Origin: an uncultured delta proteobacterium
GTDB taxonomy: Bacteria; Myxococcota_A; Polyangia; Fen-1088
Reading direction: 5' to 3'
NCBI GenBank assembly: GCA_963767925.1
Contig: CAVYGB010000008.1
Location: forward strand, 2,336,001 to 2,400,000
DNA length: 64,000 bases
Part shown: in pieces, positions 9,807 through 52,552 of the stretch
Layout of the letters: every line of letters begins with the position of its first letter
Position numbering within the stretch: position 1 is the stretch's first letter
Notes under the pieces: model-generated
Databases searched by the model: none
Told to the model about the DNA's origin: nothing
What the model saw: only the letters and a program-made list of their open reading frames with translations
Position numbers and translations under genes: made by a program

Positions 9807-11145
9807 CGGAGCTGGCGACCACCACCCGGATCACGCTCGCCAGCGGCGGCCCAGCCTGGAAGCGCCGCCGCAGGTACACGAGCGCGCCCACGAACCCCGC
9901 CGCCATGCCCGTCGCGGTGGCCGAGGCGGCGGCGTTGAGCATGGGCGCGCCGGGGACCTGGCCGGGGACGATCAGGAAGGCGACCGCCGCGCCCACCCCG
10001 ACGGTCACGGCGACCAGCCCCACCGCGACCCGCGGCTGGCCCGAGGCGTTGATGATCGCCCCCGCCACCCCGAGCAGCGAGAGGGCGACGATGCCCGAGA
10101 CGAGCACCGGCAGCGCGGTGGCGCCGTCGACGTATTCGGGCTTGTAGAACAGCCCCAGCAGCCCCGCCGGCCGGGCACAGAGGACCGAGGCCATGGCCGC
10201 CGCCAGGATGAGGGCGTAGCGCATGGTCTGGGTCACGTAAGCCCGGGTGGTCTCGCGGTCTTGCTCGAAGGTCGAGCGGGAGACCAGGGGGAAGATCACG
10301 AAGGTGATGATCAGCAAGGCCTGGTAAGGCAGGAGCGAGAAGTTCCGGACGGCCTCGTAGTGACCGACGATCTGGTTGGCCCGCTCCGCGGCGGCGACGA
10401 CGCCGGCAAACCGCCGGAGCAGGATGAGGTCGTAGTTGAGCGCCAGGTTGATGAGCAGCGTGTAGAGGACGATCCCGACCATGAAGGCCGCGAGGCGCCG
10501 CACGGGGAAGGTCGGACCGCCTGCGGTGGGGCGAGAGATGCCAATCACCGCCACGGCGGCCAGCAAGATGACCAGGGCCGCCGCCACGAACCCGCCGAGC
10601 GCGCCGGCGACGCCGAACACCGCCGCCCCGCCCAGCAGGAGCACCGTCTTGATCGTGGAGAAGCCGATGTCGAAGCCGGCCTGCACGTGAAAGCGGCGTA
10701 GCCCGTTGGCCGACCCGATGAACACCGAATAGAGCGAGTAGAAGAAGGGGATGGGGGCCACCAGCCGGAACCAGCGCACGAAGCTGGGGTCCCGGTAGGC
10801 CGAGGCGATCAGGGGGGCGGCCAGGAAGAAGCCCAGCGTGAGGGCCGCCCCGACAACGATCTGCAAGCGGAGGCCCGCCCGCTTGACGGCGTCGGCGCGG
10901 GCGTCGTCCTCGGCGGTGAACTTGGAGACCGACTGGATGGTCCCCTGGACGGTGGCGTTGTTGATGACCGAGACGACGACGTTGACCACCGAGAAGATGC
11001 CGTATTCGGCGCTGCCGACGACCCGGGTGAGCAACCAGCGCTGCAGGAAGGCGCTCACCATGAAGAAGACCTTGGCGGCACCGATGAACAGGGCTCCCCG
11101 TCCGGCCTGCACCGCGCCGTCAGAAGCTCGCGATCCTGAAACCAT
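9640..11145 (-). CDS. Oligosaccharide flippase / polysaccharide biosynthesis membrane protein (MOP superfamily)
   Basis: About 12-14 hydrophobic segments, with LTRVVGSAEYGIFS and IFPLVSR motifs. Confidence 0.8.
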   Translation of the reverse strand: MVSGSRASDGAVQAGRGALFIGAAKVFFMVSAFLQRWLLTRVVGSAEYGIFSVVNVVVSVINNATVQGTIQSVSKFTAEDDARADAVKRAGLRLQIVVGAALTLGFFLAAPLIASAYRDPSFVRWFRLVAPIPFFYSLYSVFIGSANGLRRFHVQAGFDIGFSTIKTVLLLGGAAVFGVAGALGGFVAAALVILLAAVAVIGISRPTAGGPTFPVRRLAAFMVGIVLYTLLINLALNYDLILLRRFAGVVAAAERANQIVGHYEAVRNFSLLPYQALLIITFVIFPLVSRSTFEQDRETTRAYVTQTMRYALILAAAMASVLCARPAGLLGLFYKPEYVDGATALPVLVSGIVALSLLGVAGAIINASGQPRVAVGLVAVTVGVGAAVAFLIVPGQVPGAPMLNAAASATATGMAAGFVGALVYLRRRFQAGPPLASVIRVVVASSATLVAARLVPGEGKLLTLGVLVASGVVFLVALIVLGEFGPQDRAKFRRILGRGGR

Positions 11146-11318
11146 ATGGCGGCGGAGCTTACCCAGGGCGTCGACAAACCGGAACGGGTTTCGCCGGGGC
11201 CAGGCCCGAGGGGTCAGCCTGGCCGGCGGGTAGGATCCGAAACGGTATCCCTTCCGGTAGTCGTCTTTTCGTAACCCACAGACCAGCCCGGCGGGGCTCG
11301 ACCCAGCATTTGCGCCGG

Positions 11319-11334
11319 TGGCACGGGACTTGAT
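11319..11334 (+). promoter_or_regulatory. Putative sigma-54 promoter (-24/-12)
   Basis: TGGCACGGGACTTGAT against the consensus TGGCACG-N4-TTGCW, with one mismatch at -12. It lies upstream of the GlsB/YeaQ gene. Confidence 0.4.
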
Positions 11335-11503
11335 GTCAATTCAGGCGTGTGGCCGGGTGGCGTGATGGGCGAGGCAAAGGAAGGGGAAGACGGCGCCCCG
11401 CGGGACGAACAGTCCGGCGAGGCGCCAGCGGGCGGAGCCGCTCGCCGGGAGACCGTCGACGCTGTCGGCCGAGGCGATTGAAGCAACGGAGGAGGAGAAA
11501 CAC

Positions 11504-11782
11504 ATGAACCCAGCATACGGAATCATTATGTGGATCATCATTGGCGCCCTGGCCGGCTGGATCGGCAGCAAGATCATGGGAACCGACGGCCGTCAGGGCG
11601 GTCTCGCCAACATCGTTGTGGGTATCATCGGTGCGGTGGTGGGCGGCTTCATCAGCAGCTCCGTGTTCGGTGACGCCCGTAGCAACAATGGCCTCATTGC
11701 CAGCTTTCTGGTGGCTTTGCTGGGTTCCGTCATCGTCATCGGGATCTGGCGGGCGCTATCGCGCCGAAGCAGGACCATCTAA
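11504..11782 (+). CDS. GlsB/YeaQ/YmgE family stress-response membrane protein
   Basis: WIIIGALAGWIGSKIM...NIVVGIIGAVVGG; strong RBS GGAGGAG. Confidence 0.9.
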   Translation: MNPAYGIIMWIIIGALAGWIGSKIMGTDGRQGGLANIVVGIIGAVVGGFISSSVFGDARSNNGLIASFLVALLGSVIVIGIWRALSRRSRTI

Positions 11783-29652: not shown

Positions 29653-32600
29653 TCACACGTATAAAAGCACGGCTCGGGCCGGGCGCGCGGTGGCCTCGGA
29701 GATCGCCCGGGCGTACAGGCGCGCTTGCTCCTCGTAGGTCGAGTTGTCCCGGGCCACGCCGAGGTCGGTCTTGAAATCGACGATGGTCCAGGTGTCCCCG
29801 CGGGCGTCCCCCGACTCCTCGGTGAAGGCGAGGTCGACGACGCCGTCGAGGACGGTGCCGTCGGGCAGGCGCAGGGACAGCGGCAGCTCGCGGCGGCAGC
29901 GACCGGCGGCCTGGGCGACGGCGGCCCGGCGCAGGAGGGGGTGGCGGAGAGCCTCGGCCACCGTGAGCCCGGCCGCCTCCACCTCGGGCGGGCTGCACCC
30001 CAGGTAACGTCCCTGGACGGTCGCCGCGGCCTGGATGACCAGGGCGCTAGCGTCGAGCGGGATCTCGGCGAGCACGGCGTGCACGAGGGTGCCGAACCGG
30101 CGGCCATGAGGGCGGGCGGTGCGGCCGGCGGGCACCCGCTCGACGAGGACCGGGTCGGGCGAGGGTTCGTTCGACTGGTCGCGGGTGTGCTCGGTGACGG
30201 TGCGGGCGACGAGGGTGGGGACGGCGCCCCGCCGGCCGACGTCCCGCCGGCGCTGCTGCCACTCGGCGTGGGCCCGGATGCTGGCGTCGCTGTTGCCACC
30301 GGCGGCGTCGTCCTTGAGGATCTCCTGCTGGCGCAGTCCCACCTGGTCCTCCTTGCCGAGGTCGAGGACGTTGGGGTCCCACCACACCACCTTGTGCCCG
30401 CCCAGCTCGGGCCCGTGCTGGCCAGGCGCCACCGCCTCGTGCAAGGCGCGAGGTCCCCGGGCGGGGCGGGCCACCAGGCTGTCGGAGCCGAAGGCCGGGC
30501 AGAGCGGCGCCGGCTGGCCCTGGCGCTGCCGGTCGCGCGGCGGGTAGAGGGCGGGGTGCAGGACGTCGACCCAGCCGGGCAGGCGCTGGTCGCCCACCAC
30601 GGGCACCACGAGGAGATCGCGCGCCCGGGTGGCCGCGACGTAGGTGAGGCGGACCGACTCGGCCGCGTCGCGCTCGAGCACCTCGGCCTCCCGCTCGCGC
30701 AGCTCGGTCGGGATGCAGCCGGCCAGGGGGACCAGGCACTGGCCCCGCTCGGCCTCGATGTGACGGGTGGGTCGGCCGGTGTGGGAGACGGTTGGATCGG
30801 CGAGGACCACAACCGGGAACTCCAGGCCCTTGGCCTTGTGCACGGTCATGATGCGCACCCCCTCCGACCCGTCCTCGAGCACCGGGGCGTCGGCGGCCTC
30901 GTTGCGCTCGGCCTGGTCGCGCAGGCGCTCGACGAAGCCCCGGAACGAGCTGGCCCCGGCGGCCTCGAAGCGCCGGGCCAGCTCCACCACCCGCAGGACA
31001 TTGGCCAGGGCCTGCTCGCCGTTGGGCCAGATGGCGATGCCGGCGTGGGCCCGGGTGGCCTCCAGCAGCTGCAGGATGGTGTCGGCGATGGGGACCCGGT
31101 TGCGACCGCGGTGCAGCCGGGCCAGCAGGGTCAGGGCGCTGGCCACCTCGCTCGTCTCGGGGCGATCGCGGGCCTCGGCCAGCACCGGCGTGAAGGGGTG
31201 CAAGCCGCCCAGGGTGTGCCGCCAGACCAGGAGCTGGGCGTCCGAGAGGCAGAACAGCGGCCCCCGCAAGGTGGCGTAGATCGAGAACTCGTCCTCCGGC
31301 CACTCGAGGGCGCAGAGGGCGTTGCGCATGGCCTCCACCTCCTCGCGCTCGCCGTAGCCCCGCCCCCCCACGAGGACGTGGGGCAGGCGCCGGGCCTCGA
31401 GCGCCCGCACCACATGGCGGGTGGTGTCGGCCCCGAAGCTCTGCAGGCGGCGAAACAGCAGACAGACGTGCCGGGCCTCGACCGGCACGAGGCCGGCCTG
31501 CGCGTCGAGCACCTTCCAGCCGCTCTGCCCGACCAGCCACTCGATGAAGGCGGCGATGGCGTCGGCGCCCGACCGTTCGATCTCCGTGTTGCTGGCCAGG
31601 TCGCCCCACTCGTTCTTGTAGGGCGCGGGGACCGGCAGGGCCACCAGGGCGGGCTGCTGGGCGATGGGCGGACGGACGGCGTCCAGCGGGGCGTAGTCGG
31701 CCTGGATGCGCCCCGGCCCCCCGCGCATCGCCGCGGCGAAGGCGCCGTTGACCGCCTCGGTGAGCGGGGGGACGCTGCGGAAGTTGGCCGAGAGATGGAC
31801 CACCTCGGCCCCGGCGGCGCACAGGCGATCGACGATGCCCTGGTACAGGGCGAGATCGGCGTGGCGGAAGCGGTAGATCGACTGCTTGGGGTCGCCCACG
31901 ACGAACAACTTGCCGGGCGCGGGCCGGACCCGGGTCCAGTCGCGCTCGTCGGGATCGCCGGCCGCCAGCAGGAGGAGGATCTCCGCCTGGAGGGGATCGG
32001 TGTCCTGGAACTCGTCGATGAGGACGTGGGAAAAGCGGGTCTGCAGCTCGCGGCGGACGGCGGGCGCGTCGCGGATGAGGTCGCGGGCCCGCAGCAGCAG
32101 GTCGACGAAGTCGAGCTTGCCCGCCGCCACCTTGGCCGCCTCGTACTCCGCCACCAGGGGCCGCAGATCCTCGCGCAGGCAGGCGGCCAGATCGGCGTCG
32201 CACAGGGCGACCGCCCGGTCGAGCTCGGCCTTGATCCCGTCGCGCAGGGCGATGGCCTCGGACCGGGCGAGGTGGGCCCCGAAGGGTTCGGCCCGCGGGC
32301 GCCCCCGGTAGGTCCAGGCCCGGGTCCGGTATTCGTTGGCCAGATCGCGCAACTCGGCCTCGAGCCCGTCGTGATCGCGCCCGCGCAGCCGCTCGCGCCG
32401 GTCCAGCTCCTCCTTCCAGCGGCCGAGGGTGGCGATGCCCTGGGCCAGCCAGTCGGCGGGCTCGACCGCCCGGGCGCTCAGCGCGACCAGCTCGTCCAGG
32501 CGGGCCACGGCGTCGTCGATGGCCGCCGACCGATCGAAGGGATCGCGCCGCCAGGGGGCCTCGAACCCGCGCAGCTCGACGAGCTTCCAGCCGGCCTCAC

Positions 32601-33127
32601 GCAGCAACGCCCGCGGGCCCTCGTGGTCCTTGCGCCGGAGCACCCGCCGCACCCCCTCGGGCGGATCGGCCAGGACCCGCTGGAACCAGCGCTCGAAGGC
32701 CTGGTCGTAAAGGCCGCTCTGCGCGTCCCCCGCGACGATCTCGAAGGAGGGATCGACGCACGCCTCGACCGGACGCTCGCGCAGGAGATCGCCGCAAAGC
32801 GCGTGGATGGTCCCGATGTGGGCCAGCTCCAGCTCGGCCAGGGCCCGGTCCAGGCGCGGGCGCCGGGGGTCGTCGGCGCCCAGCTCCGAGCGGGCCCGCT
32901 CGATCTCCGTGCGCAGGCGCAGCTTCATCTCTCCGGCCGCCTTGTCGGTGTAGGTCACCGCTACCAGGCCCTGCAAGGTGGCCTGCCCGCCCCGCACGAG
33001 GGCCACGATGCGGGAGACCAGGCCGGTGGTCTTGCCGGTCCCGGCCGCCGCCGTGACGATCAACGTGGCCGCCGAGATCCTCGCGGATGCGGGCGCGGGC
33101 GGGCTCGTCGGGCAGCGGGGTGCTCAT
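29653..33127 (-). CDS. UvrD-family helicase/nuclease, AddA-like (frameshift near 33070)
   Basis: AAAGTGKTT, GTIHA, IDEFQDTD, VGDPKQSIYRFR, MTVHKAKGLEF, YVAATRAR, and C-terminal PD-(D/E)XK motif GVVDL...IVDFKT. Confidence 0.9.
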
Positions 33128-36100
33128 GGCAGGTTGCGCAGGGCTTTGAGGGCGGTGAGATCCCCCCGGTCCTTCTTGCGGCCGGTCCGCTCCTCCTCCC
33201 AGGGGCCGCAGATCGGACGGTAGTCGCAGAAGCGACAGGCGTCTTTGCCCGGCGCCGCCGGCAGGAAGCCCCGGCCGAGGGCGTCGGAGAGGGCGGCGGC
33301 CACCTGGTTGGCGGAGGCGCGGGCCCGGCGATCGAGGGCCACCAGCACCTCCTTGAACTCGCCGGCGCTGGTGCCGTAGCTCAGGCGCCCACCCTCGATC
33401 GCCTTGTCGGGAAAGAGCTTCTCGAGGGCCAGGGCGTAAAAGACCGGCTGGAGCGACTCGCCGCCCCCGATCACCGAGCCCGGCCGCTGGCGGGACTTGC
33501 CGGTCTTGTGGTCGGTGGCGCGGAGCTGGCCGCCGGGGGACACCTCGACGAGGTCGATCGAGCCGCGCAGCTTGATCCCGCAGTCCAGGGCGATCGGGTC
33601 GGGGGTCGACGCGGGGTCGCGCCCGCGCGCCTCGGCCAGACCGAAGGCGAGCTCGAGGTTCAGGGGACTCCAGGGCTCCCGCTCGCTCTCCCGGCGCAGC
33701 GATTCGAGGAGGTCGGCGCGGATGGAGGCCACCCCGTCCTCCCAGACCCGATCGATGGCGGGGGCCAGCCGGTCCCGGTATTGCCCGGCCACCGCGACGA
33801 GGATGCGCTCGAGCGCCGCGCGCACCTCGGCCAGGTTGTCGGGGCGGATGGGGACCAACCCGTGCGCGCGCAGCTCGGTGAGCAGCTCGAAGAGGATCTC
33901 GTGCACGAGCGAGCCGCGATCGAGCGGGTCGATCTTCTCGATGGCCACCGGCTCCTCGCGGGGGGCCAGCTTGTGGAGCGCGTGGAGAACGAAGCGGTAG
34001 GGGCAGGCGGCGAAGCTCTGCATCGCCGTCGGGGAATACGAGCGGGCGGTCAGGGCGTGGGCGGCCAGCGCGGCCCGCGCCGCCTCGTCGGGCTTGACCA
34101 GTCCGTCGGCGTAGGACCAGCGGCCCGGGTCCCAGCGCATGGCCCGGTGGCGGAGGGCGCGGGCCAGGTGCTGGTTGGAGGTGATGAGGTAGCGGGCAGC
34201 CCCGGTGACGGCGGCGGCGTCCGGGCGGACCAGGCGGGCCAGCAGGGAGAGGTCGTGCTCGGCCTCGTCGATGGCGTCGGCGGCCTCCTCGGGGGCGGGC
34301 CAGCCCAGGCGGGTGGCGCCGCCGCGATCGGCGGTGCGGGCCAGCGCCTCGAAGCTGGGCAGCCGTCCCTCGACCGCGCGCAGGACCTCCAGGCCGTAGA
34401 AGGAGGGGACCCGCGGGCGAGCCTGCTCGGCGTCGACCCGGGAGTACGACAGGACCACCCGCCGCCGGGCGCTGCCCACGGCGATCCGAGCGCCAGGCGC
34501 TCGGCCTCGATGCGATCGACGACGGTGGCGAGGTGGCCCCCGAGGGCGGCCCGGGCCTCGTCGCGCAGCAGGGGGTCCTGGTTGACCCGCTGCGGGAACA
34601 TCCGCTCGGCCAGCCCGGGCACGAACACCAGGTCGAACACCAGCCCGCGGGCGGTGGCCACCGGGCCGACGAAGACCCGGCCGGCGCTGCGGCTCGAGGG
34701 GGCCAGCGTGAGGTTGGCCAGGCGGCGGGCCAGCACCACCCGCACCTCGCGCAGCCCGACCGGACCCACCGGCGCCATGGGGTGGAGCTCGGCCAGGACG
34801 GCGAGCACCCGGTCGGGCCGCCGCAGGGTGCGGGTGGCCAGCCCGGCCAGGCGATCCAGCCAGCCGCCCCAGGTGGCGCTGCCGGGCAGCGCCTCGAGAT
34901 CGGCGAGGATCGGCAGGGCGAAGGCGCGCAGGGTCTCGAGCTGGACCAGGTCGCGCTTGATCCCCTCGCCGCGCGGCTCGTCCACCTCGACCTCCGCCAG
35001 CCGCAAGATGAGCTCCTCGCGCCAGCCGGCGAGGCGGCGCTCCCAGCGGGCCCGCCCGCCGATCACCGCGGCGTCGACCAGGATCTGCTCCCAGCGGTGG
35101 GGGGCCCGCAGGGTCCCCGCCACGACCGCGCCGGAGAGGGTAGGCGGCGAGGCGTCGCTCTCCGGAGGCTCCTCCGGGAGCGCCTCGGCCTCGGCGGCGA
35201 GCGCGGCGGGCAGCAGCTCCTCGTCGGGGGGGACCCAGCGGTCGGTGGCCGGCGCGGCCCGCGGCGGCTGGTTCTCGGCGGTGGCGTCGGGCGACTCGCC
35301 GAGGGAGAGGTACTCGGCGAAGCGGCGGGCGGACAGGCCTTCCTCGAGACAGGCGAGCAGGGCCAGGAAGGCCCGCCCGGCCGGGTCGGGCTGCACCGCC
35401 CCGCTCGAGAAGTGAACCGGGATGCGGGCCCGGCGGAGCGCCTCCTGGAGGTGGGCCCGGTACTGCGCGGGTCCTCGCAGCAGCACCGCCATGCGATCGA
35501 AGGGGACGCCCGCCTCGGCCTCCCGGATGATCCGGCGCGCGATCTCCACACACTCGCGGCTCTCGCCGGGCGCCGACATGAACACGACCTCGTCCCGCCG
35601 GTCCGACAGGGCGTTGGTCCCCTCGGAGAACAGGGAGGCCTGCAGCCGCCCGAGCGCGCCCGCAGGTGGGTCCGCGTTCTGGCTCATCCGCGCCTCTGGC
35701 AGGAGGGCGCGCAGGCGGTCGAGCGTGCGCCCGTCGCCGGCCGGGACGGTGGCCAGCGTGTCGGGCGCGGCGCGGGCGAGCTGCTCGACGAGGCGGGCCT
35801 CGAGGGTGGTCCAGACCGGCACGTCGAGCAGCAGCAGGGCGGGCGCGGGCTGCCGGGTGGTGTCGCGGCGGGCGCAGGCTTCGGCCGCCGCGGTCAGGAG
35901 AGCGGCCCGATCCGCGAGCCGCTCCTCCCCGAGGAGGCCGGCCAGCTCGCCGAGGATCCGGGCCAGCTCGGGCGACTCGGCGGCGATCGCCTCTGCGTCC
36001 AGGCCGGCCAGGCGCACCTCCGTGAGCGTGCGCGCCACCGCCGCCGCCAGCCCCGGGCGGTCGGCGATCGCCTCGAGCCGCCCCAGGCCACCCGCCGCGC

Positions 36101-43505: not shown

Positions 43506-43780
43506 AAGCCTGCGCCGGGAAGCGGACCCTCGTCAGCCTTGCCCTGCTCAACCAGGCGCCGCGTGCCCACACGCTTCAGCGTGGAGGCCACTCGTGATCT
43601 CAGCAGCCGCAGCGTTCGGCGGACTGACGCGCGCGCGGGCACGGCCTGCCCCGAATCGACCGCATCTTTGAAGATCTGGCAGAGCCGCAACTGCAGGCTC
43701 CCCCCGCTGCTGCCGATGACCAGCTGCCGACCGGCACTTCGGAATCCTCGCACGTTGCCGGGACGTTCGCCCACGAGCGG

Positions 43781-43935
43781 GAGCCACGAAAGGCCTGTCA
43801 GCCCGCCTGCTGGTCGCGACCAGGGCTCGCGCCACCATCTCCTTTCCAGTGCCGGTCTCGCCACGGATGAGCACGGGAACGTCGGACCCCGCCACGCCGC
43901 GCGCGAGCTGGCGGACCTGCGCGACGACGGGCTCC
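43781..43935 (-). pseudogene. Sigma-54 activator AAA+ fragment
   Basis: VRQLARGVAGSDVPVLIRGETGTGKEMVARAL...RADRPFV, with no continuation to a GAFTGA motif. Confidence 0.7.
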
Positions 43936-43965
43936 TCTTCCGATCCGGAACGCAAGAACCGCGGT

Positions 43966-44427
43966 TCAGGGCGAGGAGACCAACTCCCAGGAAGCTCCCG
44001 CGAGGCGGTAGACGCTGCCTTCGGCGGGAACCCGTCGTTCGATCGAGCCGTCGGGCTTGATGGTCCAGGACTCGTCCCAGCGCTCGTCACGATCGAGGTC
44101 GACCTTGAGGCGATTCCAGCGCCGGCCGTCGTCGCTATAAACGTTGATCTTGTAAGGCCTGCCGCGCGTTCCGTCCTTGATCTTGGGCTCGACAGGGCGC
44201 TCGAGCAGCGCCAGCGCGGCGCGGTCGATCTCGCGCATGCCCGGCCCAGGTTGAAGCGGCGCAGACGGGGCTCCGGTCGCCGGTGGGCGTGCCGGGGAGG
44301 CCCTCGGCGCGGCGACGGGAGGCGGCGATAGGGTGCCGGCGCATTTGATGGCGCCGAACATGCCGAGGAGGCCACCGCAGCTGAAAACAACGACCAGGAC
44401 GATGTTGCGAAAGGTGCGGTACTTCAT
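43966..44427 (-). CDS. Membrane-anchored hypothetical protein (last gene of the radical SAM operon)
   Basis: ATGA overlap with radical SAM #3. N-terminal TM, Pro-rich linker, KIKD...PYKINVYSDD...KVDLDRDERWDESWT. Confidence 0.75.
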   Translation of the reverse strand: MKYRTFRNIVLVVVFSCGGLLGMFGAIKCAGTLSPPPVAAPRASPARPPATGAPSAPLQPGPGMREIDRAALALLERPVEPKIKDGTRGRPYKINVYSDDGRRWNRLKVDLDRDERWDESWTIKPDGSIERRVPAEGSVYRLAGASWELVSSP

Positions 44428-45320
44428 GAGGTGGCCTTTGGTCGCTCCCGAGGCATCATGCCCCGCTCGATGGGGACGGTGCAGTTGCAGTATTGGTAGC
44501 GACACGGCGTGGGCTCGTCGCGAAGGGAAAAAGTCCCCTCGAGCAGGTTCCCGAGAGACTCCCGGCGGTACCGGCGCGCGGGGTAGCACCGGAAGGCGTT
44601 GCCGAGGTCGTCGAGGATGAAATAACGAGCGCCCGCCCAGCAGGGCCGACCGGAGAAGTCGGGGGCGATCTCGCCGGTCGAGTTGTGCCCACCCAGGGCG
44701 AGGATCTGCGCGCGCTCGCCGGGGGTGTAGGCGATGACCTCTCGATCCTGCTTCTCCGGTTGGATCTTGAAGCGAATGCCCGCCGACGCAAAGCGGTCCC
44801 GGAGATCCCCGAGGCGCGGGAGGTTGGCACGGGTCGCCACGCAGGTCACACAGAGCGACGCCGGCGGTCGGGCGCGCTTGGTGATGGTGCGGCAGCGTTC
44901 GATGAAGTCCTCGAGCGTGTCGGGTTTGCCGCCGACGCCGGTGGCGTCCACGTATTCGAGGTGTAGTGAACAGCTCATCACGCCGAGGTGGTCTCCGGCG
45001 GCGTCGAGGAACGCGAGCAGCTTTTTCCGCGAAGCCGACAAGTTCGTCACCATGGATATCAGGAAACCCAGGCCACGCAGGCCCCGCACCAGCTCCAGCA
45101 GTTGGGGGTGCAGGAAGGGTTCTCCCCCGGAGAGCTTCACCTCCCACGCCCCGGGTAGGGCGGCGAAAGCACGCAGGAACCGGGGGACGTCGCGCGCCCA
45201 GCGCCCGCGGTCGTCGACGAAACGTTGGGTGCAGTAGCTGCAGCGGTAGTTGCAGGTGGTGTTCATGTTCCAGCTGATGACCCCGCGCGGGGGGGCGGGG
45301 GTGGGAAGGAAGGGGCTCAT
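44424..45320 (-). CDS. Radical SAM protein #3 with C-terminal Cys-rich (twitch/SPASM-like) domain
   Basis: WNMNTTCNYRCSYC, LSGGEPF, TNLS, SLHLE, CWAGARYF...C...CRYQYCNC. Confidence 0.9.
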   Translation of the reverse strand: MSPFLPTPAPPRGVISWNMNTTCNYRCSYCTQRFVDDRGRWARDVPRFLRAFAALPGAWEVKLSGGEPFLHPQLLELVRGLRGLGFLISMVTNLSASRKKLLAFLDAAGDHLGVMSCSLHLEYVDATGVGGKPDTLEDFIERCRTITKRARPPASLCVTCVATRANLPRLGDLRDRFASAGIRFKIQPEKQDREVIAYTPGERAQILALGGHNSTGEIAPDFSGRPCWAGARYFILDDLGNAFRCYPARRYRRESLGNLLEGTFSLRDEPTPCRYQYCNCTVPIERGMMPRERPKATS

Positions 45321-46267
45321 TGGCTCGGCCCTGCCTCGGCCGCCCGGGCCGGCACACCCTCGATCATCCCGCGGTTGGCCGGCACACTGCAGGGGCAGAT
45401 GGTGTAGGGGCACCGCACCGGACCCGGGCGCAGAACCACGCTGCCTTGGTGGACGTTGCCGAGGTAACCTTCGTCTTCGCGTTTGGCCGATCGGCACGAC
45501 CAAGCGTCGCCGTTTTGCATGAGGACGAAGTAACGGGCGCCGGTCCAGCAGCGCCGGCCGGTGTAGGCGGGTGCGAGATTGGCGCTGCGCGACTCCTCGG
45601 CGAGCGCAAGCCCGCCGACGATTTCCTCGATGAGCGCCAGCTGCGCCAGGTTGTAGGCGACGACGCCGTGTTTGACCTTCATGAGCTGGGGAAAAAAGCG
45701 GAAGCCCGCGGCCTCGACCGCGCGCTTCGCGGCTCGGGCCTCCGCAAGGCGACTGGGCACCAGCACGCTGTTGACCACGAAGCGGGCGGTGGCATCGGAG
45801 GCCTGCCGCAGGGCCGACAGCCGCTGCAGGAAATCCGCCACCGCGGTGAACTCGAGGTGCAGGCTCGCCGAAACGATGCCGAGCCGGCCCAGGGTAAGAG
45901 CACCGAAACGTCGCAACACCGAGACCGGCGGCGACAGATTGGTCAGCAGCGAGATCCGATGCGGCAGCGCCAGCAGCCCTGGAACGATCCGGCGCAGGAA
46001 GAGCGGCGAGGCGAAGGGCTCGCCGCCGGTCATCTTGATCTCCCAGCTCCCCGGTAGGGCGCCGAGGAAGGCGATCATGCGATCGATCTGCTCGGCCGAT
46101 GGGAAGCCGACACGACGGTCGCGCGCCTGGATGCAATAGCTGCAATCGTAGTTGCAAACCCCGCACACCTGCCACTCGACGGTCGGCTGGTGCGGCCAGG
46201 GAGGTTCGGCCGGTCCCGGTTCCGCGGAGCTCGTGCCCAACCTTCCAACGATGGGTAAGTGTCTCAA
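45317..46267 (-). CDS. Radical SAM protein #2 with C-terminal Cys-rich domain
   Basis: WQVCGVCNYDCSYC, MTGGEPF, TNLS, SLHLE, CWTGARYF...C...CPYTICPC; TTG start overlapping the upstream stop. Confidence 0.9.
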   Translation of the reverse strand: MRHLPIVGRLGTSSAEPGPAEPPWPHQPTVEWQVCGVCNYDCSYCIQARDRRVGFPSAEQIDRMIAFLGALPGSWEIKMTGGEPFASPLFLRRIVPGLLALPHRISLLTNLSPPVSVLRRFGALTLGRLGIVSASLHLEFTAVADFLQRLSALRQASDATARFVVNSVLVPSRLAEARAAKRAVEAAGFRFFPQLMKVKHGVVAYNLAQLALIEEIVGGLALAEESRSANLAPAYTGRRCWTGARYFVLMQNGDAWSCRSAKREDEGYLGNVHQGSVVLRPGPVRCPYTICPCSVPANRGMIEGVPARAAEAGPSQ

Positions 46268-47394
46268 CCGAGCACCCTCAACCGTTTAGGGATAGCCGCC
46301 ACCTCCCCCGGACGCACCGGGCGGGGCGCCTCGCCGAACGCCGCGCGGAAGGCAGCGCCCAGCTTGACGTTCTCGTTCAGCTTTCCGCACTGCCAGCAAC
46401 CCGGGAAGAAGCCACCGGCGGCAAGCCGCGACCGCAAGCTCTCCCAGGCCTCACCTCGCCAGAGGGCGGAGAAACCAGCGGGCCGCTCGAGTCTTCCCAC
46501 CACCACCTCGGTGTTGCAGCAGAACAGGACGGTACCGTCGACGGTGATGCGGCTATATTCGTACCCCAGAAAACATCCGACGTCTTCGATGGGCGCGGTG
46601 GTCTCGCCGCCCGCCTCCACCTGCGCGCGGAAGACGTCCAGGTTGTGTTTCACCCCCAGGGCAAGGGCCTTAACGCGGGCCGCTTCGATCCCCTCGCCCA
46701 GCAACCAATGCCGCTGTGGCTCGCTGATGCGGGCAGCCTCGGTGCCGGCGCGCAAGGAAGCGAGCTTGAAGTTTACCTGGAGGGCCCGATAGCGAGCGGC
46801 CAGCGCGATCATGTCGGGCAGCTGACCGGCATTACAGGCGGCGATGACCTGGACCTGTTTGTAGCGGCGTCCGGCGTCTCGCAGCTGGCCCAGCATCCGG
46901 TGCAGCTTGTCCCAGTGGGCCGGGCCGAACGACGGGTGGAAGGCCAGGTAGGCTTCCGCGCTGGCACCGTGAACGCCAATGAGAAGTTGATCCACGCGCA
47001 GGGCCAGGAGCCGCTCGAGATCCGCGGCGACGAGGTTGGTGATGATCGTGAGATGCAGGCCGCGACCTTTGACGTCGGCGATCAGCTCATAGACGTGAGG
47101 ATGGGTGAACGGCTCGCCCATGCCCGACAGGATCACCGCCTCGAGGCCGCCCAACCCCTGGATGTCGTCGAGCAGCGCGTGCACGAACGCGGTGTCTACC
47201 CGCTGCCGTTTCCACGCCGCTGGTCTCGCCGCGGCCAGCAGGGGACTGTGGTCCCAGCAGGTGATGCAGTCGGTGTTGCAACTGTTCGTGATGTCGATGT
47301 GCACCGTGCGAGGTCCCAGGCGGACGATCCCGTCCCGGAGGCTCTCCAGGCGTTGCCGCGACGGCGAGGGAACAGCGCCGGTGCGCCGGTTCAC
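46264..47394 (-). CDS. Radical SAM protein #1 with SPASM/twitch-like C-terminus
   Basis: IDITNSCNTDCITCWDHSP, SGMGEPF, CFLGY...GTVLFCC...CWQC; GTGA overlap with the glycosyltransferase. Confidence 0.9.
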   Translation of the reverse strand: MNRRTGAVPSPSRQRLESLRDGIVRLGPRTVHIDITNSCNTDCITCWDHSPLLAAARPAAWKRQRVDTAFVHALLDDIQGLGGLEAVILSGMGEPFTHPHVYELIADVKGRGLHLTIITNLVAADLERLLALRVDQLLIGVHGASAEAYLAFHPSFGPAHWDKLHRMLGQLRDAGRRYKQVQVIAACNAGQLPDMIALAARYRALQVNFKLASLRAGTEAARISEPQRHWLLGEGIEAARVKALALGVKHNLDVFRAQVEAGGETTAPIEDVGCFLGYEYSRITVDGTVLFCCNTEVVVGRLERPAGFSALWRGEAWESLRSRLAAGGFFPGCWQCGKLNENVKLGAAFRAAFGEAPRPVRPGEVAAIPKRLRVLG

Positions 47395-49061
47395 GATGGC
47401 CCCCCCACACTCTGCAGCCGCACCCGCGCGCGTTCGAGGAGCAGCCGGTTTGGTTGCTCCCCGTCGGGCTCGGCCTGAAGGCGGGTCACCTCCTGGACGA
47501 CCCGGAACAGATCGAGCCCCACCGCGGCGCTGACATCCATGACCGTGACGATCTGCTCTGCGGCGCGCGCCGGGGCGACCTCCCGCTCGGTGCGGAGGCG
47601 CTCGACCAGCGAGACCAGGGCGCTCCACTGCCCGTGCGCCGCCGGGTGCGCCAGCAGCGCGGCAGCGGCCTCGCCGATCTCGTCCGGCCCCACCTGAGGC
47701 GCGCAGAGCTTGCGGCCGAGCAGCGTCGCGAGCCGCACGGCCAGTTTCTGAGGCATACCCACCTCCCGGGCCGCCCGCAAGAGGGTGCGGGCAGGCTGGA
47801 GGTCGAGCGCGGCCCGGTCCACCGTCCGCGGATTTCCCAGCAGGCCCACCGCCGCATCTACCAGATGGCCCAGCTCAACGCCCAGCGCCTGCGCCTCCGC
47901 GAGCAACTGGTCGTCGACGATGGCCGCTGCCTGACGCACCACACTGGTGGGTAGCACCAGCTCCAGCAGCTCGGCCGCTGCGTCGCGAGCATGGTTGCGT
48001 GGCACCCTCCGTAGGCCGGCCTCCCGCAAGCCCGCCGCCGTGCTCGGATCGCGGAGAGCGGCCACCGTCGCGGCCAGCGTCGATGGCTCGACGGCGCGCA
48101 GATCCAGCGCCGCCCCCGCGCCCACCATGGCCGCCACCCGGCCGTACTGGTCGTCGGCGATCTTGGTCTGGGCGAAAAATGCGGTGGGAACGCCGAAGTG
48201 CAGGAGCTCGTGGGTGGCGTTGAAACCGGCCGCGGAGATCGCACCGTCCACGCCGGGGAGCACCTCTGCCAGGCGCGTCTCCGTCCAGAATGTGATGCGC
48301 GGACCTCGGCGGGGCTCACCGCGATAGAGCGGCCCGGCCGCGAGCAGCAGATGGATGGTGGGATCGTGGGCCACGGCGGCCACCACGGCGTCGAGGAGGG
48401 CGGCGACCGTCTGGTCGCCGCCGCCGCCCCCGGAGACCAGCAGGCAAAAGGCGTCCTCCGGAACACCGATGCGGGCCCGCGCGGCCCCGCGGGACAGGGC
48501 CTCGAAGCGCTCGGTGAGCATGACCGGACCGACCGCGCGAATCTGATCGCGCCGCACCTCGGCAGGCGGCTCGGCGGGATCGCCATCCGCACCGGGAACG
48601 ATCACCCGATCGTAAAGCGTCACCAGGGCGCGGTAGGCCGGCCGATCCGCGAGCTCCTGGCGAACCCTGCGCGCGACCAGCGCCTTGTGCCGGCAGAGGT
48701 CCAGCACCCCCAGCAGCTCGTCGAACGACCCGTTGGGGAATGTGTCCACCACGAGCAGATCGGGGCGGAGCAGCGCCACCGCGCTCCAGACCCACTGCTT
48801 GGCCAGGGCCAGGTAAGAGGCCTTGGGGATGCCGGCCTCTTCGACGATGGACTTGCTCGGCAGCTTGAAGGAGGCGAAACCCTCGTGGAAAAGCAGCGTG
48901 TCCGCCTCGGAGGTGGTGAGGAACCAGTGCTGGGTGGTGACCCCGGCAAAGGTGGCATAACGCCTCAACCAGCGGTTGATGGCCGCCAGCCGGCAGACGT
49001 GCCCGAGCCCACGGCCGTTCACCGCGTAGTTGACCAGGACGAGCGAGCGCGGCAGTTCCAT
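47391..49061 (-). CDS. GT-B fold glycosyltransferase (MurG/GT28 C-terminal-like) with helical C-terminal extension
   Basis: YAVNGRGLGHVCR, PDLLVVDTFP, VSGGGGGD, ISAAGFNATHE, DDQYGR. Confidence 0.8.
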   Translation of the reverse strand: MELPRSLVLVNYAVNGRGLGHVCRLAAINRWLRRYATFAGVTTQHWFLTTSEADTLLFHEGFASFKLPSKSIVEEAGIPKASYLALAKQWVWSAVALLRPDLLVVDTFPNGSFDELLGVLDLCRHKALVARRVRQELADRPAYRALVTLYDRVIVPGADGDPAEPPAEVRRDQIRAVGPVMLTERFEALSRGAARARIGVPEDAFCLLVSGGGGGDQTVAALLDAVVAAVAHDPTIHLLLAAGPLYRGEPRRGPRITFWTETRLAEVLPGVDGAISAAGFNATHELLHFGVPTAFFAQTKIADDQYGRVAAMVGAGAALDLRAVEPSTLAATVAALRDPSTAAGLREAGLRRVPRNHARDAAAELLELVLPTSVVRQAAAIVDDQLLAEAQALGVELGHLVDAAVGLLGNPRTVDRAALDLQPARTLLRAAREVGMPQKLAVRLATLLGRKLCAPQVGPDEIGEAAAALLAHPAAHGQWSALVSLVERLRTEREVAPARAAEQIVTVMDVSAAVGLDLFRVVQEVTRLQAEPDGEQPNRLLLERARVRLQSVGGPS

Positions 49062-49063
49062 GG

Positions 49064-50344
49064 TCAGCTCGCGTCCATGCTGGAAAAATCGTCCCGGCTC
49101 CCCTGGGCGGTGGCTATCGCGCCGGCAGCTACTTCTCGGTCACGTATCGCATGAGCCGTGCGGTGTTCTGCCACCTCGGGGATGAAGTTTCCTTTAACGC
49201 GCCCGCCGGTCATGAGATCCCACCAGAGATAGTCTCGCGACGGTTCACACACTTGATACGCGTCGAACCCCACCACCGACTGGCAGGCCTGCTGGTAACG
49301 GGCGCGGCGGTCGTCCCAGCGCACGAGCGGCAGAGAGTACTTTGCCCTCACCTCTCGCTCGTCGTACGAGGCGTTGCACTTCCTGGCACTGGCGGTCAGC
49401 TTCTCCTCGGTGCGCGCCAGCTTCTCGAGCATACGTGTGACTTCGGCGCGTGGGCGGCGGATCCATTCTTCCCCAATGGCTGCGAGGTAGCGGGTCTTGG
49501 CCTGCACACCCGCCACCCGCTTGGCCGCCAGCGACAGGGCCGGGTCGTCGCTGAAAACCCCTAGAAAGTCCTGTTCCGGAAGGGCGTCGAGATGATCGCG
49601 CGCTCGACCGCGGGCGGTGGCGAGCGACCAGGGCTCGGTGCTGGCAAGCGCGGTTCCGGCCTCCTCGTACCGGCGGGCGAGCGCTTCGATCTGTCCGGCC
49701 TGATTGATCAGGTCGCCACGCTCGGTATTCAAGGCCTCGAGGGCCTCGCCCTCTCGCAGGTAACCCGCGCGAATCTGCCCGAAGTCCATCGCCCGCAGGC
49801 GCGGACCGTGTCGCTCCAGAATGAGGTCGCCGTGTTTCCAGTGGCGATAATACGAGGACTCCCACCACATTCGGGTGTACCCCTCGACCCCGTATTTCTC
49901 CGCGATCAGCTCGGCGAAGAACGGCTCGCCTTCCAGCAGCGAGCGGCTGGTCGCCAGGGCCGTGATATGCTCCGCTAGATCGTGGGCGCGGATGGAGATG
50001 CGGTTGAGCGCCGCGGCGCGGGTCACGAACCGCTGGTCGACTTCGATGGACGCCCGGGTGATCTCCAGCTGCGCCTTACGTTCTCCGGCACGCTTCGCCA
50101 CCTCGCCCGGAGCCAGGGTCGGGAGGGACAGCCGGGAGGCGGCCGCGCTCAGGGCCGCGGGGTCGAGGTTCGGCAAGAGCAGTCCGAGGAGGTGTTGCCA
50201 GGCACCGTCGAGCGCGGCTCGCACCTCCTGCTCGGTACGCTCGTGCTCCACGCGCGTGGCATCGAGACGGTGAAGCTCCGCTTCGGCCACGGCACGTTGT
50301 CTCCGGGCGAGCTCGCGCAGCTCCTGGCCGGAAAGGCTGCTCAC
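49064..50344 (-). CDS. Coiled-coil-rich hypothetical protein
   Basis: GTGA overlap with the upstream gene; helical heptad-like segments; aromatic motifs YTRMWWESSYYRHWKHGD and DYLWWDLMT. Confidence 0.75.
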   Translation of the reverse strand: MSSLSGQELRELARRQRAVAEAELHRLDATRVEHERTEQEVRAALDGAWQHLLGLLLPNLDPAALSAAASRLSLPTLAPGEVAKRAGERKAQLEITRASIEVDQRFVTRAAALNRISIRAHDLAEHITALATSRSLLEGEPFFAELIAEKYGVEGYTRMWWESSYYRHWKHGDLILERHGPRLRAMDFGQIRAGYLREGEALEALNTERGDLINQAGQIEALARRYEEAGTALASTEPWSLATARGRARDHLDALPEQDFLGVFSDDPALSLAAKRVAGVQAKTRYLAAIGEEWIRRPRAEVTRMLEKLARTEEKLTASARKCNASYDEREVRAKYSLPLVRWDDRRARYQQACQSVVGFDAYQVCEPSRDYLWWDLMTGGRVKGNFIPEVAEHRTAHAIRDREVAAGAIATAQGSRDDFSSMDAS

Positions 50345-50700
50345 GGCCCGCCGCCTCCCGGGCGGGCGCCCGAACACCTGCGGGCGACCTCGTCGAGGAA
50401 GGCCTCCGCCGCGGCCGCCAGATCCTCGGCGGAGGTCGCGGCGGTTTCATCCACCACGAAGATGTACAGGTCGCCCGCGGCGATGCGCCGGCCAAGCTCT
50501 GCTCGCGCTATCGCAGTGAGCTCGGCGTGATCACCGGCAAGGTGGGTGAGGTATTCGTATCCCACCCGCGCGACGGGGTCCCATCCGTCCGCCGTGAAGT
50601 CGAGCCTGCCCTCCCGGAAGGGGACGTTTTCCTGGATCGAATAGCCACGCCCGGCGAAAGCCCGTTTCAGGACGGCGCATCCTTCCGCTTCGCTCAGCAT
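50341..50700 (-). CDS. Small hypothetical protein, possible PD-(D/E)XK/Vsr-like nuclease fold
   Basis: F...GYSIQENVPF...FTADGWDPVARVGYEY resembles the xDGx..xEY core of restriction-endonuclease-like domains. Confidence 0.55.
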   Translation of the reverse strand: MLSEAEGCAVLKRAFAGRGYSIQENVPFREGRLDFTADGWDPVARVGYEYLTHLAGDHAELTAIARAELGRRIAAGDLYIFVVDETAATSAEDLAAAAEAFLDEVARRCSGARPGGGGP

Positions 50701-51107
50701 GATGGGCCCGATAGGCTGCCCCGGACTTCGTCCTTAAACCCATTTCTGACGAACGCCCGATCGAGGTGACCGAGCACCGCCAGGGCGGCTGGCCCGGACA
50801 GAGGTGCCGACCACTCCGATCGGTAGACGATGAGGCGGCTCATGTCTATCGTGGAGACCATGATCGAACCGCCTTGACCGCCGGCCCCCACTTCCACGTC
50901 GGCGAGACAGGCGTGGGCGCGGGCCACGTCGTCGTCGCGAGCAGAGCGTTTCAACCAGGTCCGGCACACCTCGCGGGCCTGGTCGAATCGACGTAGCTGA
51001 ACCAGCTGGGAGGAAAGCCGCGAAAGCTCCGCCGGCCCCGTTGGGGCGGCAGGCGCTTCAGCCTGCGAGAGCAGCGATCCCAACAGGATGGAGGGCAGCA
51101 AGATCAT
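50694..51107 (-). CDS. Short exported TPR-like protein, possibly truncated
   Basis: Signal-like MILLPSILLGSLLSQA; RRFDQAREVC TPR-like helix; overlaps the next gene by 7 bp. Confidence 0.4.
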   Translation of the reverse strand: MILLPSILLGSLLSQAEAPAAPTGPAELSRLSSQLVQLRRFDQAREVCRTWLKRSARDDDVARAHACLADVEVGAGGQGGSIMVSTIDMSRLIVYRSEWSAPLSGPAALAVLGHLDRAFVRNGFKDEVRGSLSGPSC

Positions 51108-51771: not shown

Positions 51772-51887
51772 CGGTGAATTCCGCCACTTCTCTGGGCGCG
51801 ATGAGCATGACGCGATGGCTTTAGCGACTGCGCCTCCCTTCACGCCTGATGGCGGCAATGGGGTCGTGCGGGCCCTATAAAGGTCTG

Positions 51888-52136
51888 ATGGCAAATGCCG
51901 ACGTGGACGAGCTGCTCGCGGCGATTCGCCGTCTCCCGCTTGACGAGCGCCTGCGACTCTTGGACCGCGCCAGTCGCGAAGCCGCTCGCGATGCGCCGAG
52001 ACCGGTGTCGGTCCGTACCAACCTAGCGTCTGCTCTTCTCGGGTTGCTGGCAGACGAACCCGAGCTAGTCGATCAGATGTGCCTCCTGGCCTATCGGTCG
52101 CGCGACGGAGTGCGGATGCGGTCGGTTGATGAGTAG
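51888..52136 (+). CDS. Putative antitoxin
   Basis: VDELLAAIRRLPLDERLRLL...LLGLLADEPELVDQ; overlaps the PIN gene. Confidence 0.7.
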   Translation: MANADVDELLAAIRRLPLDERLRLLDRASREAARDAPRPVSVRTNLASALLGLLADEPELVDQMCLLAYRSRDGVRMRSVDE

Positions 52137-52552
52137 GCGGTTGTTGGATACGGACATCCTCTCCGAAATCCTCAAGGGAAGGAACGTCTCGGTTTACGGC
52201 ACGAGCAACGGCGTATCTGGCGGAGCATGGCAGGTTCACCACGTCGGCGGTGACGGTCGCGGAGGTCGTCTACGGATTCCGTCGGGTGGGTCGGGAGGAC
52301 CGTGTGACCCAGTTCGAAACGTCTGCGGACGCATCCGAGGTACTCCCCTTCGATGACCAGGCTGCCCGGCTCGCCGGGCGAATCAATGCCGATCTGGAAC
52401 GCCTCGGCCGCGTCATCGGAATGCCTGACGTCATGGTTGCCGCGATCGCCCTGCGAAACGGTCTCCCGATCGTCACCGGAAACGTCGTGCACTTCGAATA
52501 CGTCATGGCCGCGGGGTACCCGCTGGCTATCGAGAACTGGAAAAATACCTGA
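52129..52552 (+). CDS. vapC: PIN-domain (VapC-like) toxin, frameshift near 52195
   Basis: LLDTDILSE in one frame, then SAVTVAEVVYG...DVMVAAIAL...VTGNVVHF in another. Confidence 0.8.

Follow-up and report, generated by a model that had tools for sequence, protein, structure and literature searches.

The window described here is a 64 kb stretch (contig CAVYGB010000008.1) of the 9.3-Mb genome of an uncultured delta proteobacterium, with roughly 70% GC, and the element under study is a cassette of seven intact open reading frames (ORFs) lying on its minus strand between positions 43966 and 50700. The seven genes are joined by five 4-bp stop/start overlaps and one 2-bp gap, and they are one operon. 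The first, p119 (50341-50700), is an accessory gene for an acidic protein of 119 amino acids (aa); it is followed by cc426 (49064-50344), which starts with GTG in a GTGA overlap and encodes an all-helical protein of 426 aa and, after the 2-bp gap, by GT556 (47391-49061), which encodes a GT-B glycosyltransferase. Three genes for radical S-adenosylmethionine (SAM) enzymes come next: rSAM1 (46264-47394, GTGA overlap), with a SPASM domain, then rSAM2 (45317-46267, TTGA overlap) and rSAM3 (44424-45320, ATGA overlap), both with a twitch/SPASM-like C-terminal Cys domain; the last gene, TM153 (43966-44427, ATGA overlap), produces a membrane-tethered protein of 153 aa. In all seven ORFs the GC content is 0.79-0.87 at the third codon position versus 0.49-0.56 at the second; since this is the pattern expected at about 70% GC, they can be considered as coding.

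The coordinates and junctions of these ORFs agree with those listed in an earlier note, made from the letters of the window alone, and, p119 apart, its description of the single proteins was borne out as well. The motifs CNTDCITC, CNYDCSYC and CNYRCSYC are present in rSAM1, rSAM2 and rSAM3, respectively; cc426, indicated as a coiled-coil protein, shows helices of up to about 50 residues in its AlphaFold2 model (pLDDT 93), and the GT-B fold of GT556 is confirmed by the AlphaFold2 model and by Foldseek. The membrane anchor proposed for TM153 corresponds to a strongly hydrophobic N-terminal segment (residues 9-27, Kyte-Doolittle 19-residue mean of 2.45), absent from the other six proteins, where this value is at most 1.69; judging from hydropathy, TM153 is the sole membrane-anchored protein of the cassette.

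Conservation and spread of the cassette

Loci were collected from contigs of one genome per species: 155 pattern matches were obtained, 139 of which encode a relative of rSAM3, and the best 80 were fetched with their flanks; genes were counted by tblastn with the seven window proteins and by profile searches of six-frame translations. Where at least 6.2 kb of sequence is available upstream of rSAM3 (53 loci), cc426 and GT556 are each found in 50 and rSAM1 and rSAM2 each in 51, and p119 lies upstream of cc426 in 26; TM153 follows rSAM3 in 73 of the 74 loci with room downstream. The six core genes (cc426, GT556, rSAM1, rSAM2, rSAM3 and TM153) are all present on one strand in 48 of the 51 loci with both flanks, and the labels of these six-gene loci include Myxococcota, Acidobacteriota, Planctomycetota and Gloeobacterales. 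Four loci deviate: L032 and L052, without the upstream genes, L063, with neither cc426 nor GT556 nearby, and L013, which is devoid of TM153. Homologues scattered elsewhere would argue against a dedicated system, as the earlier note had pointed out; the co-location in 48 of 51 loci is decisive in the opposite sense. Each of the seven proteins has orthologues, and their order is preserved in dozens of distant genomes, which is more than chance. The six-gene core is a functional unit, with an order that is constant over several phyla.

The most conserved gene of the cassette is rSAM3, for which 973 database relatives were found at E ≤0.001; the best 120 listed are 60-81% identical, self-match excluded, and the source labels of the listed relatives include Myxococcota, Pyrinomonadaceae, Planctomycetota and Xenobia. 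The cassette enzymes are 55-81% identical across phyla. Six further divergent copies from the same phylum, with rSAM3 47-55% identical, have the gene order unchanged; in one of them, L095 (G281:C4:203500-223000), the matches to GT556 and to rSAM3 are each broken into two pieces, which may represent frameshifts in a decaying cassette or assembly errors. Altogether the cassette recurs in more than 100 species-level genomes, with metagenome bins from soil, groundwater, lake, marine and wastewater samples; a cultured and non-pathogenic carrier is Enhygromyxa salina DSM 15201 (locus L011).

Nothing else travels regularly with these genes. All-against-all clustering of the flanking ORFs revealed no additional family in more than 11 loci, and the flank families that occur in 7 to 29 loci consist of ORFs on the opposite strand that overlap the cassette genes; a conserved ORF of 20-110 aa was not found within 900 bp of either cassette end, where the small-ORF clusters contain only low-complexity ORFs or pieces and shadows of TM153.

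The occurrence of the cassette is patchy. In an even sample of 400 other genomes of the phylum, an rSAM3 orthologue (E ≤1e-60) is found in 25, and among the high-quality genomes, including the genome of the window, in 22 of 339; families differ widely, with for example 6 of 12, 3 of 9, 0 of 34 and 0 of 23 genomes carrying it. Among 40 relatives the cassette is present in 2, and it was not found in the genome of the same genus, which is 86% complete. A quick, midpoint-rooted tree of rSAM3 (81 rows) places the rows labelled Acidobacteriota (with a Gloeobacterales row), Planctomycetota, Xenobia/Eremiobacterota and Spirochaetota inside those of Myxococcota; many of the labels are submitters' names for metagenome bins and are unreliable, and the nesting fits transfer between phyla. 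As an example of such labels, locus L027 (Actinomycetota) and locus L025 (Blastocatellia) have almost identical rSAM3, with end branches of 0.02-0.03, and almost identical neighbour genes, so that the bin of L027 is probably mislabelled; the labels of several bins named 'Enterobacterales' or 'Rickettsiales', which fall in with Myxococcota-like rows, may be wrong as well. These data are best read as a cassette that is self-contained and inherited patchily.

The enzymes and the three orphan families

Each radical SAM enzyme of the cassette is recognised as such by PF04055, with 43.3 bits for rSAM1, 36.1 for rSAM2 and 52.6 for rSAM3 (cut-off 29.5), and rSAM1 also belongs to the SPASM family PF13186 (26.9 bits, cut-off 21.5). 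Besides the CX3CX2C motif, the invariant residues are C274, C292, C293, C333 and C336 in 60 sequences of rSAM1, C240, C258, C286, C291 and C293 in 65 sequences of rSAM2, and C227, C245, C273, C278 and C280 in 81 sequences of rSAM3. In each enzyme the C-terminal Cys begin with CX12GX4C, the twitch/SPASM signature; in rSAM2 and rSAM3 three more invariant Cys follow, and PF13186 gives no match to these two at E ≤0.1. Judging from these residues, the SAM cluster motif is retained by each of the three enzymes, together with an auxiliary Fe-S domain that is putative in rSAM2 and rSAM3, and all look active. With 38% identity, rSAM2 and rSAM3 are paralogues, and their orthologue groups are distinct in every locus, which indicates a duplication older than the spread of the cassette. 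Since the radical SAM cores start at residues 18-35, the enzymes have no room for a RiPP recognition element (RRE), the RiPPs being peptides that are synthesized by ribosomes and modified after their translation.

The earlier note had proposed a dedicated and possibly undescribed system, with a gene set that fits no known cofactor pathway. A dedicated system that corresponds to no characterised pathway is supported, as every NCBIfam match is far below its cut-off. The best match of rSAM1 is the tungsten-enzyme maturase (70.8 bits), followed by AhbD, NirJ2, MftC and ScmF, and all its scores are 5 to 15 times under the cut-off: 55.6 versus 500 for AhbD, 38 versus 500 for NirJ2, 32.9 versus 265 for MftC and 24.4 versus 381 for PqqE. 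For rSAM3 the values are 37.7 versus 381 for PqqE and 36.3 versus 325 for MoaA, so that none of the AhbD, NirJ, MftC, PqqE and MoaA equivalog cut-offs is reached. The STM4011 family (NF038073, cut-off 200) gives 40.2 bits with rSAM2 and 44.8 with rSAM3 (39.6 and 35.2 in the genome search), too low for membership; the same is true for the prokaryotic viperin model NF038283, which aligns to rSAM3 over positions 3-146 of 281 with 52.3 bits against a cut-off of 180. The PADLOC pVip model matches rSAM3 over positions 1-150 of 257 (62.9 bits), and rSAM3 compares with viperin structures at E of about 1e-3. Overall, none of the seven proteins reaches the cut-off of a dedicated model in Pfam, NCBIfam (release 20.0) or PADLOC, and in a full-text literature search the cassette was described nowhere among the publications found, as far as their titles and the openings of their abstracts tell.

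A relative of rSAM3 is found in a different arrangement in P0391, a fusion protein of 608 aa from a JGI metagenome, where residues 50-330 form an rSAM3-like domain and residues 330-545 a GT2 glycosyltransferase domain. The rSAM3-like domain is a full-length relative with 30% identity and shares the C-terminal Cys pattern of rSAM3; thus, the fusion provides a link between the rSAM3 subfamily and glycosyl transfer that does not depend on this operon. P0394 and P0395 are double radical SAM proteins of tandem type, which also contain a SPASM domain.

The glycosyltransferase GT556 consists of a GT-B domain at about residues 1-365 and a helical C-terminal domain of about 190 residues, with about ten helices (AlphaFold2 pLDDT 92). 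Foldseek gives the best match to Kcn28 (E 8.5e-12; TM score 0.46 on query length and 0.63 on target length), and further matches to OleD/OleI, CalG1, GtfA/B/D, the sterol glycosyltransferase UGT51 and MurG, at 13-19% identity; the profile search against the PDB matched YjiC (3.3e-9), MurG (3.7e-7) and OleD. The fold and the nucleotide-sugar-binding C-terminal half place GT556 among the GT-B enzymes of GT1/GT28-like type, whereas the curated models are not reached, with 19.5 versus 31.7 bits for PF06722, 13.3 versus 22 for PF04101, 18.9 versus 250 for MurG (TIGR01133) and 15.5 versus 260 for MGT (TIGR01426). The invariant residues H21, D101/D106, GGG(G)D and E285 (alignment A5) presumably have the roles that are familiar from the GT1/GT28 families, and by this measure GT556 appears to retain the residues of an active enzyme; judging from its modelled fold, it is of a type that usually acts on small or lipid-like acceptors. 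A gene for a sugar epimerase/dehydratase dependent on nicotinamide adenine dinucleotide adjoins the cassette or lies inside it at L012, L058, L059, L070 and L081. A complex prediction for GT556 with cc426 scored 0.00, which is no answer and counts neither for nor against binding.

The other three proteins, cc426, p119 and TM153, have no family match in Pfam, NCBIfam or the PDB, also when the alignment members were scanned singly, and the profile searches against the PDB gave nothing below E 0.008 for them; as far as sequence comparison goes, they are orphan families without annotation. The cc426 family comprises 602 representative clusters with one architecture, nearly all those listed having 410-470 residues. 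It contains conserved Trp/Tyr-rich motifs, and its acidic tail is disordered (pLDDT <50 at residues 414-426) and finishes, in most homologues, with a conserved D-x-S end (alignment A2). Comparison of the fold with the PDB returned nothing beyond generic coiled coils, and in the ESM Atlas only unnamed hypothetical clusters were matched. Several homologues display His-rich stretches before the acidic tail (L010:4860-6212, L013:5375-6670, L039:4864-6144, L066:3715-4986 and L086:5147-6424, for example) and most end with hydrophobic-D-(A/V/P)-S (A2, C-terminal 50 columns); the cc426 of the window ends with MDAS and has no His run.

For p119, 244 homologues of about 110-120 aa were found, none with a Pfam domain. 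An alpha-beta-beta-beta-alpha-beta-alpha pattern is predicted by eye from the sequence, not computed; D38, D41, E49 and D84-E85 are conserved, and no conserved Lys follows E49. As regards a PD-(D/E)XK fold, no Pfam, NCBIfam or PDB-profile match was obtained, and these searches neither back nor exclude it. In P0277, a protein of 549 aa in the representative library, p119-like residues 1-110 are fused to cc426-like residues 121-549 (hhalign probability 99.8%). The fusion is either a Rosetta-stone link or a gene-call artefact at a 4-bp overlap; on account of it, p119 and cc426 probably act together.

TM153 starts with an N-terminal MK(F/Y)(K/R)TF(R) motif and a hydrophobic stretch that is an anchor or a signal; a linker rich in Pro then leads to a conserved domain of about 90 residues (alignment A3) with the Asp-rich loop DLDRDxKWDEKW. 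Some homologues present a lipobox-like Cys at the anchor. In the ESM Atlas the domain gives weak leads, with scores of 0.80-0.86, to clusters partly bearing EF-hand, dockerin and FG-GAP. The extracytoplasmic domain is duplicated in tandem in L010, L011, L040 and L061 (at about 10890-11740). A Lys-Trp cross-link in the KWDEKW loop was considered and ruled out, since the positions vary between homologues.

Setting of the window copy

In the window the cassette lies 2.3 kb from a tRNA-Met gene. A carrier of the same family (G003) has the cassette on contig C5, whereas the two window flanks have their homologues on contig C12, at a distance of about 20 kb from each other, which indicates that the window copy occupies a variable region; in the genome of the same genus, a single contig carries the tRNA-Met in collinear order with the right flank. 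The earlier note had placed the genes in a tRNA island next to a toxin-antitoxin pair: the tRNA and the differing presence and place of the cassette among relatives agree with this, whereas the toxin-antitoxin pair is broken. It is located at 51849-52552 on the plus strand and includes an ORF for 95 aa (51849-52136) followed by a PIN-domain gene, which is split over two frames (52126-52356 and 52250-52552) and matches PF01850 at positions 37-111 only, in the second frame; it is probably a frameshifted vapC.

Directly downstream of TM153, inside the ORF 43548-44390, a fragment of 53 residues of a sigma-54 interaction domain is present at about 43779-43937 on the minus strand; it covers positions 4-56 of 168 of PF00158 and looks like the remnant of a truncated activator. 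Intact sigma-54 activators follow TM153 in L025 and L027. The decayed neighbouring DNA that the earlier note had mentioned is thus verified in part, by the activator fragment and the split PIN gene. Elsewhere in the window, at 29653-35415, long overlapping frames run on both strands (1156 aa minus, 1916 aa plus) in DNA of 74-78% GC.

The activator fragment in the window, together with the intact activators of L025 and L027, had given rise to the idea of a sigma-54 promoter, which was discarded: with up to 2 mismatches allowed, the consensus TGGCAC-N5-TTGC shows no enrichment, the count being 52 versus 56.9 expected, and the scan gave no good site upstream of the operon. A sigma-70 promoter scan found no promoter-like sites, and terminator-like sites are near chance level; the Rfam scan of the window revealed tRNA only, and no riboswitch. 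In a search of sequencing runs, one soil-metagenome DNA run contains 0.13 of the sampled words and no RNA run was listed. Upstream of p119, the minus-strand ORF 50694-51106 has a signal-peptide-like start (MILLPSILLGSLLSQAEA) and a stop that shares 7 nt with the start of p119. Pfam gives no match, and the ORF is not a conserved neighbour of the cassette in other loci; it may represent a remnant or an eighth gene specific to the lineage.

Function of the cassette and known systems

The reading that we favour, with a rough probability of 0.45, is that of a self-contained and patchily inherited pathway for a radical-tailored glycoconjugate at the membrane. Established are the classes of the enzymes, the intactness of their catalytic motifs, the constant set of genes and the presence of one membrane anchor; the substrate, the order of the reactions and the roles of cc426, p119 and TM153 are inferred. 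GT556 would transfer a nucleotide-activated sugar to a small or lipid-like acceptor, on the cytoplasmic face of the membrane; the three radical SAM enzymes would then perform successive hydrogen-abstraction chemistry on that sugar or on the aglycone, with dehydration, epimerisation, ring contraction and C-C bond formation as candidate steps. Radical tailoring of sugars has precedents in BtrN, DesII, BlsE, HpnJ and calditol synthase (Cds). The helical cc426, together with p119 where present, may act as a non-catalytic scaffold, and the domain that TM153 could display on the outer side of the membrane, acidic and possibly Ca2+-binding, would be the place where the product arrives or is bound. 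It is the fold of GT556, the GT2 fusion in P0391 and the sugar epimerase neighbours that point to sugars. The suggestion of the earlier note that the system could glycosylate and then radically tailor a sugar or lipid corresponds to the reading ranked first here.

Several points weigh against this pathway. No acceptor, donor or product was identified for the cassette, and the flank clustering assigns no sugar-nucleotide synthesis gene, flippase or exporter to the conserved core. SPASM-domain enzymes mostly act on peptides or proteins, and protein and peptide maturases are among the best partial matches of rSAM1. The fusion evidence consists of one protein cluster, and epimerase neighbours were seen in no more than 5 loci, with four of them from a single clade. 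The roles of cc426 and TM153 are guesses and both could be substrates instead; moreover, the modelled likeness of GT556 to small-molecule glycosyltransferases would also be compatible with a protein acceptor.

The main alternative is possible, although clearly less probable; in it, the three SPASM/twitch enzymes and the glycosyltransferase modify a protein encoded by the cassette, with the tail of cc426 and TM153 before its export as candidates. Anaerobic sulfatase-maturing enzymes, which act on sulfatases, and QhpD, which acts on QhpC, are precedents for such a maturation. The SPASM domain of rSAM1, with partial matches that include tungsten-enzyme, mycofactocin and Scm maturases, the weak likeness of rSAM2 and rSAM3 to the STM4011 family and the co-occurrence of two non-enzymatic proteins with the enzymes in the 48 complete loci are in line with it; suitable targets would be the conserved, low-confidence tail of cc426 and, in TM153, the conserved MK(F/Y)(K/R)TF start and the Pro/Ser/Thr-rich linker. 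Conversely, the radical SAM enzymes lack an RRE or other peptide-recognition domain, cc426 and TM153 have no conserved Cys and few single residues that are invariant, and the Lys/Trp positions of the TM153 loop vary. In addition, GT556 resembles glycosyltransferases with small-molecule or lipid acceptors, and the enzymes are 47-81% identical, versus only 15-56% for the putative substrates. If a peptide were the target, a RiPP-type cluster could also be envisaged, with its precursor located elsewhere or too short or variable to be recognised; three SPASM/twitch enzymes in a row and the weak matches of rSAM1 to MftC, PqqE and sactipeptide maturases would fit, and glycosylated RiPPs exist, as does the glycosylated peptide-derived cofactor mycofactocin. 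This is improbable, since no conserved small ORF occurs within 900 bp of the cassette ends, the gaps in the window operon do not exceed 2 bp and all RiPP-maturase models are far under cut-off; as the earlier note had stated, neither a precursor nor an RRE/PqqD, leader peptidase or exporter is found in the seven proteins or conserved in the flanks (Pfam, NCBIfam).

The earlier note had also suggested an anti-phage or competition module making a modified nucleotide or sugar in a viperin-like manner, and this was not supported; we consider it the least probable of the four, by a little. Its patchy distribution, the position of the window copy in a variable region near the tRNA-Met and the broken toxin-antitoxin pair, and the match of the N-terminal half of rSAM3 to both pVip models speak in its favour; that match, however, involves only the common radical SAM core, as expected of any such core, and is far below the viperin cut-off. 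No PADLOC system is present, the models matched beyond pVip being only GajA (E 0.016) and PDC-M51A (E 0.0067) in PADLOC-DB 2.0, and no copies were found in 50,697 phage records, 72,556 plasmid records and IMG/VR contigs. The 125 nearest neighbour genes that were scanned are heterogeneous and mostly housekeeping: only HNH, Uma2 and resolvase genes look related to defence or mobile elements, and no defence island, polysaccharide export locus or common regulator is found among them. Furthermore, the enzymes are unusually conserved across phyla, unlike fast-evolving defence genes. On the best reading, the cassette belongs neither to the classical RiPP clusters nor to the defence systems, and the probability left after the four explanations goes to functions outside them.

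Taken together, the data can be read as an undescribed biosynthetic or maturation machine, to which we would give an even chance, in which three radical SAM enzymes and a GT1-like glycosyltransferase work on a cc426 scaffold, sometimes fused to p119, and generate a new class of radical-tailored glycoconjugate; it would have spread horizontally out of Myxococcota and would include three new, specific protein families. The product might be a sugar, either carbocyclic or C-C-linked, carried by a lipid or even by the scaffold or anchor protein, and passed to the membrane-tethered, Ca2+-binding-like outer domain. The type of the cassette is that of tailoring by radical SAM enzymes and a glycosyltransferase, and there is a fair chance that its product and the three orphan families are new. 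Radical SAM enzymes acting on sugars and glycoconjugates carry out reactions that are difficult by other means, ring contraction, deoxygenation and C-C coupling among them; to our knowledge, few of them have been characterised. In this compact unit of six genes, three such enzymes in fixed order are combined with a dedicated glycosyltransferase, and three unannotated families are involved; solving it would give a function to several hundred to about a thousand clusters of rSAM3, cc426 and p119 relatives, and would probably expose a new envelope-associated molecule in Myxococcota and Acidobacteriota. The two fusions, of an rSAM3-like domain with GT2 and of p119 with cc426, suggest that glycosyltransferases, helical proteins and radical SAM enzymes are more widely linked in bacteria.

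Among known systems, the uncharacterised STM4011 family is the best full-length NCBIfam match of rSAM2 (positions 11-255 of 278), with which it shares a C-terminal Cys-rich region, and it matches the C-terminal half of rSAM3; judging from the scores, rSAM2 and rSAM3 are not members. STM4011 itself gave no match above cut-off in the genome of the window, and none at all in 14 control genomes. Prokaryotic viperins resemble the N-terminal half of rSAM3, which aligns to the pVip models; the C-terminal half differs, being a Cys-rich twitch-like domain, which viperins are not known to have, and the cassette is devoid of a kinase or a defence context. The SPASM maturases (anSME, MftC, PqqE, QhpD, Scm and tungsten-enzyme) share with rSAM1 the radical SAM core and a SPASM domain beginning with CX12GX4C, and TIGR04317, TIGR03962 and TIGR02109 are among its partial matches; the cassette differs in that an RRE is lacking, and neither a precursor nor a target that has a conserved Cys, Ser or Tyr site was found. 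Moreover, rSAM1 has only five C-terminal Cys, whereas a full SPASM domain has seven.

GT556 has in common with the GT1/GT28 enzymes the two-Rossmann GT-B fold, a nucleotide-sugar-binding C-terminal half recognised by profile and an N-terminal Gly-rich loop with an invariant His, and it is distinguished by the extra helical C-terminal domain of about 190 residues, which is absent from the matched enzymes, with their 347-431 residues. The sugar-tailoring radical SAM systems (BtrN, DesII, BlsE, HpnJ and Cds) differ from the cassette, which has three radical SAM enzymes, none at a curated cut-off, and three orphan non-enzymatic proteins, and which is not surrounded by hopanoid, aminoglycoside or nucleoside-antibiotic genes; of the five, only BlsE was matched in the PDB search (7vob, E 3.9e-6). 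What they share is the presence, in the same pathway, of an auxiliary-cluster radical SAM enzyme and a nucleotide-sugar glycosyltransferase, with no peptide substrate; HpnJ and Cds, in particular, give rise to membrane-associated products.

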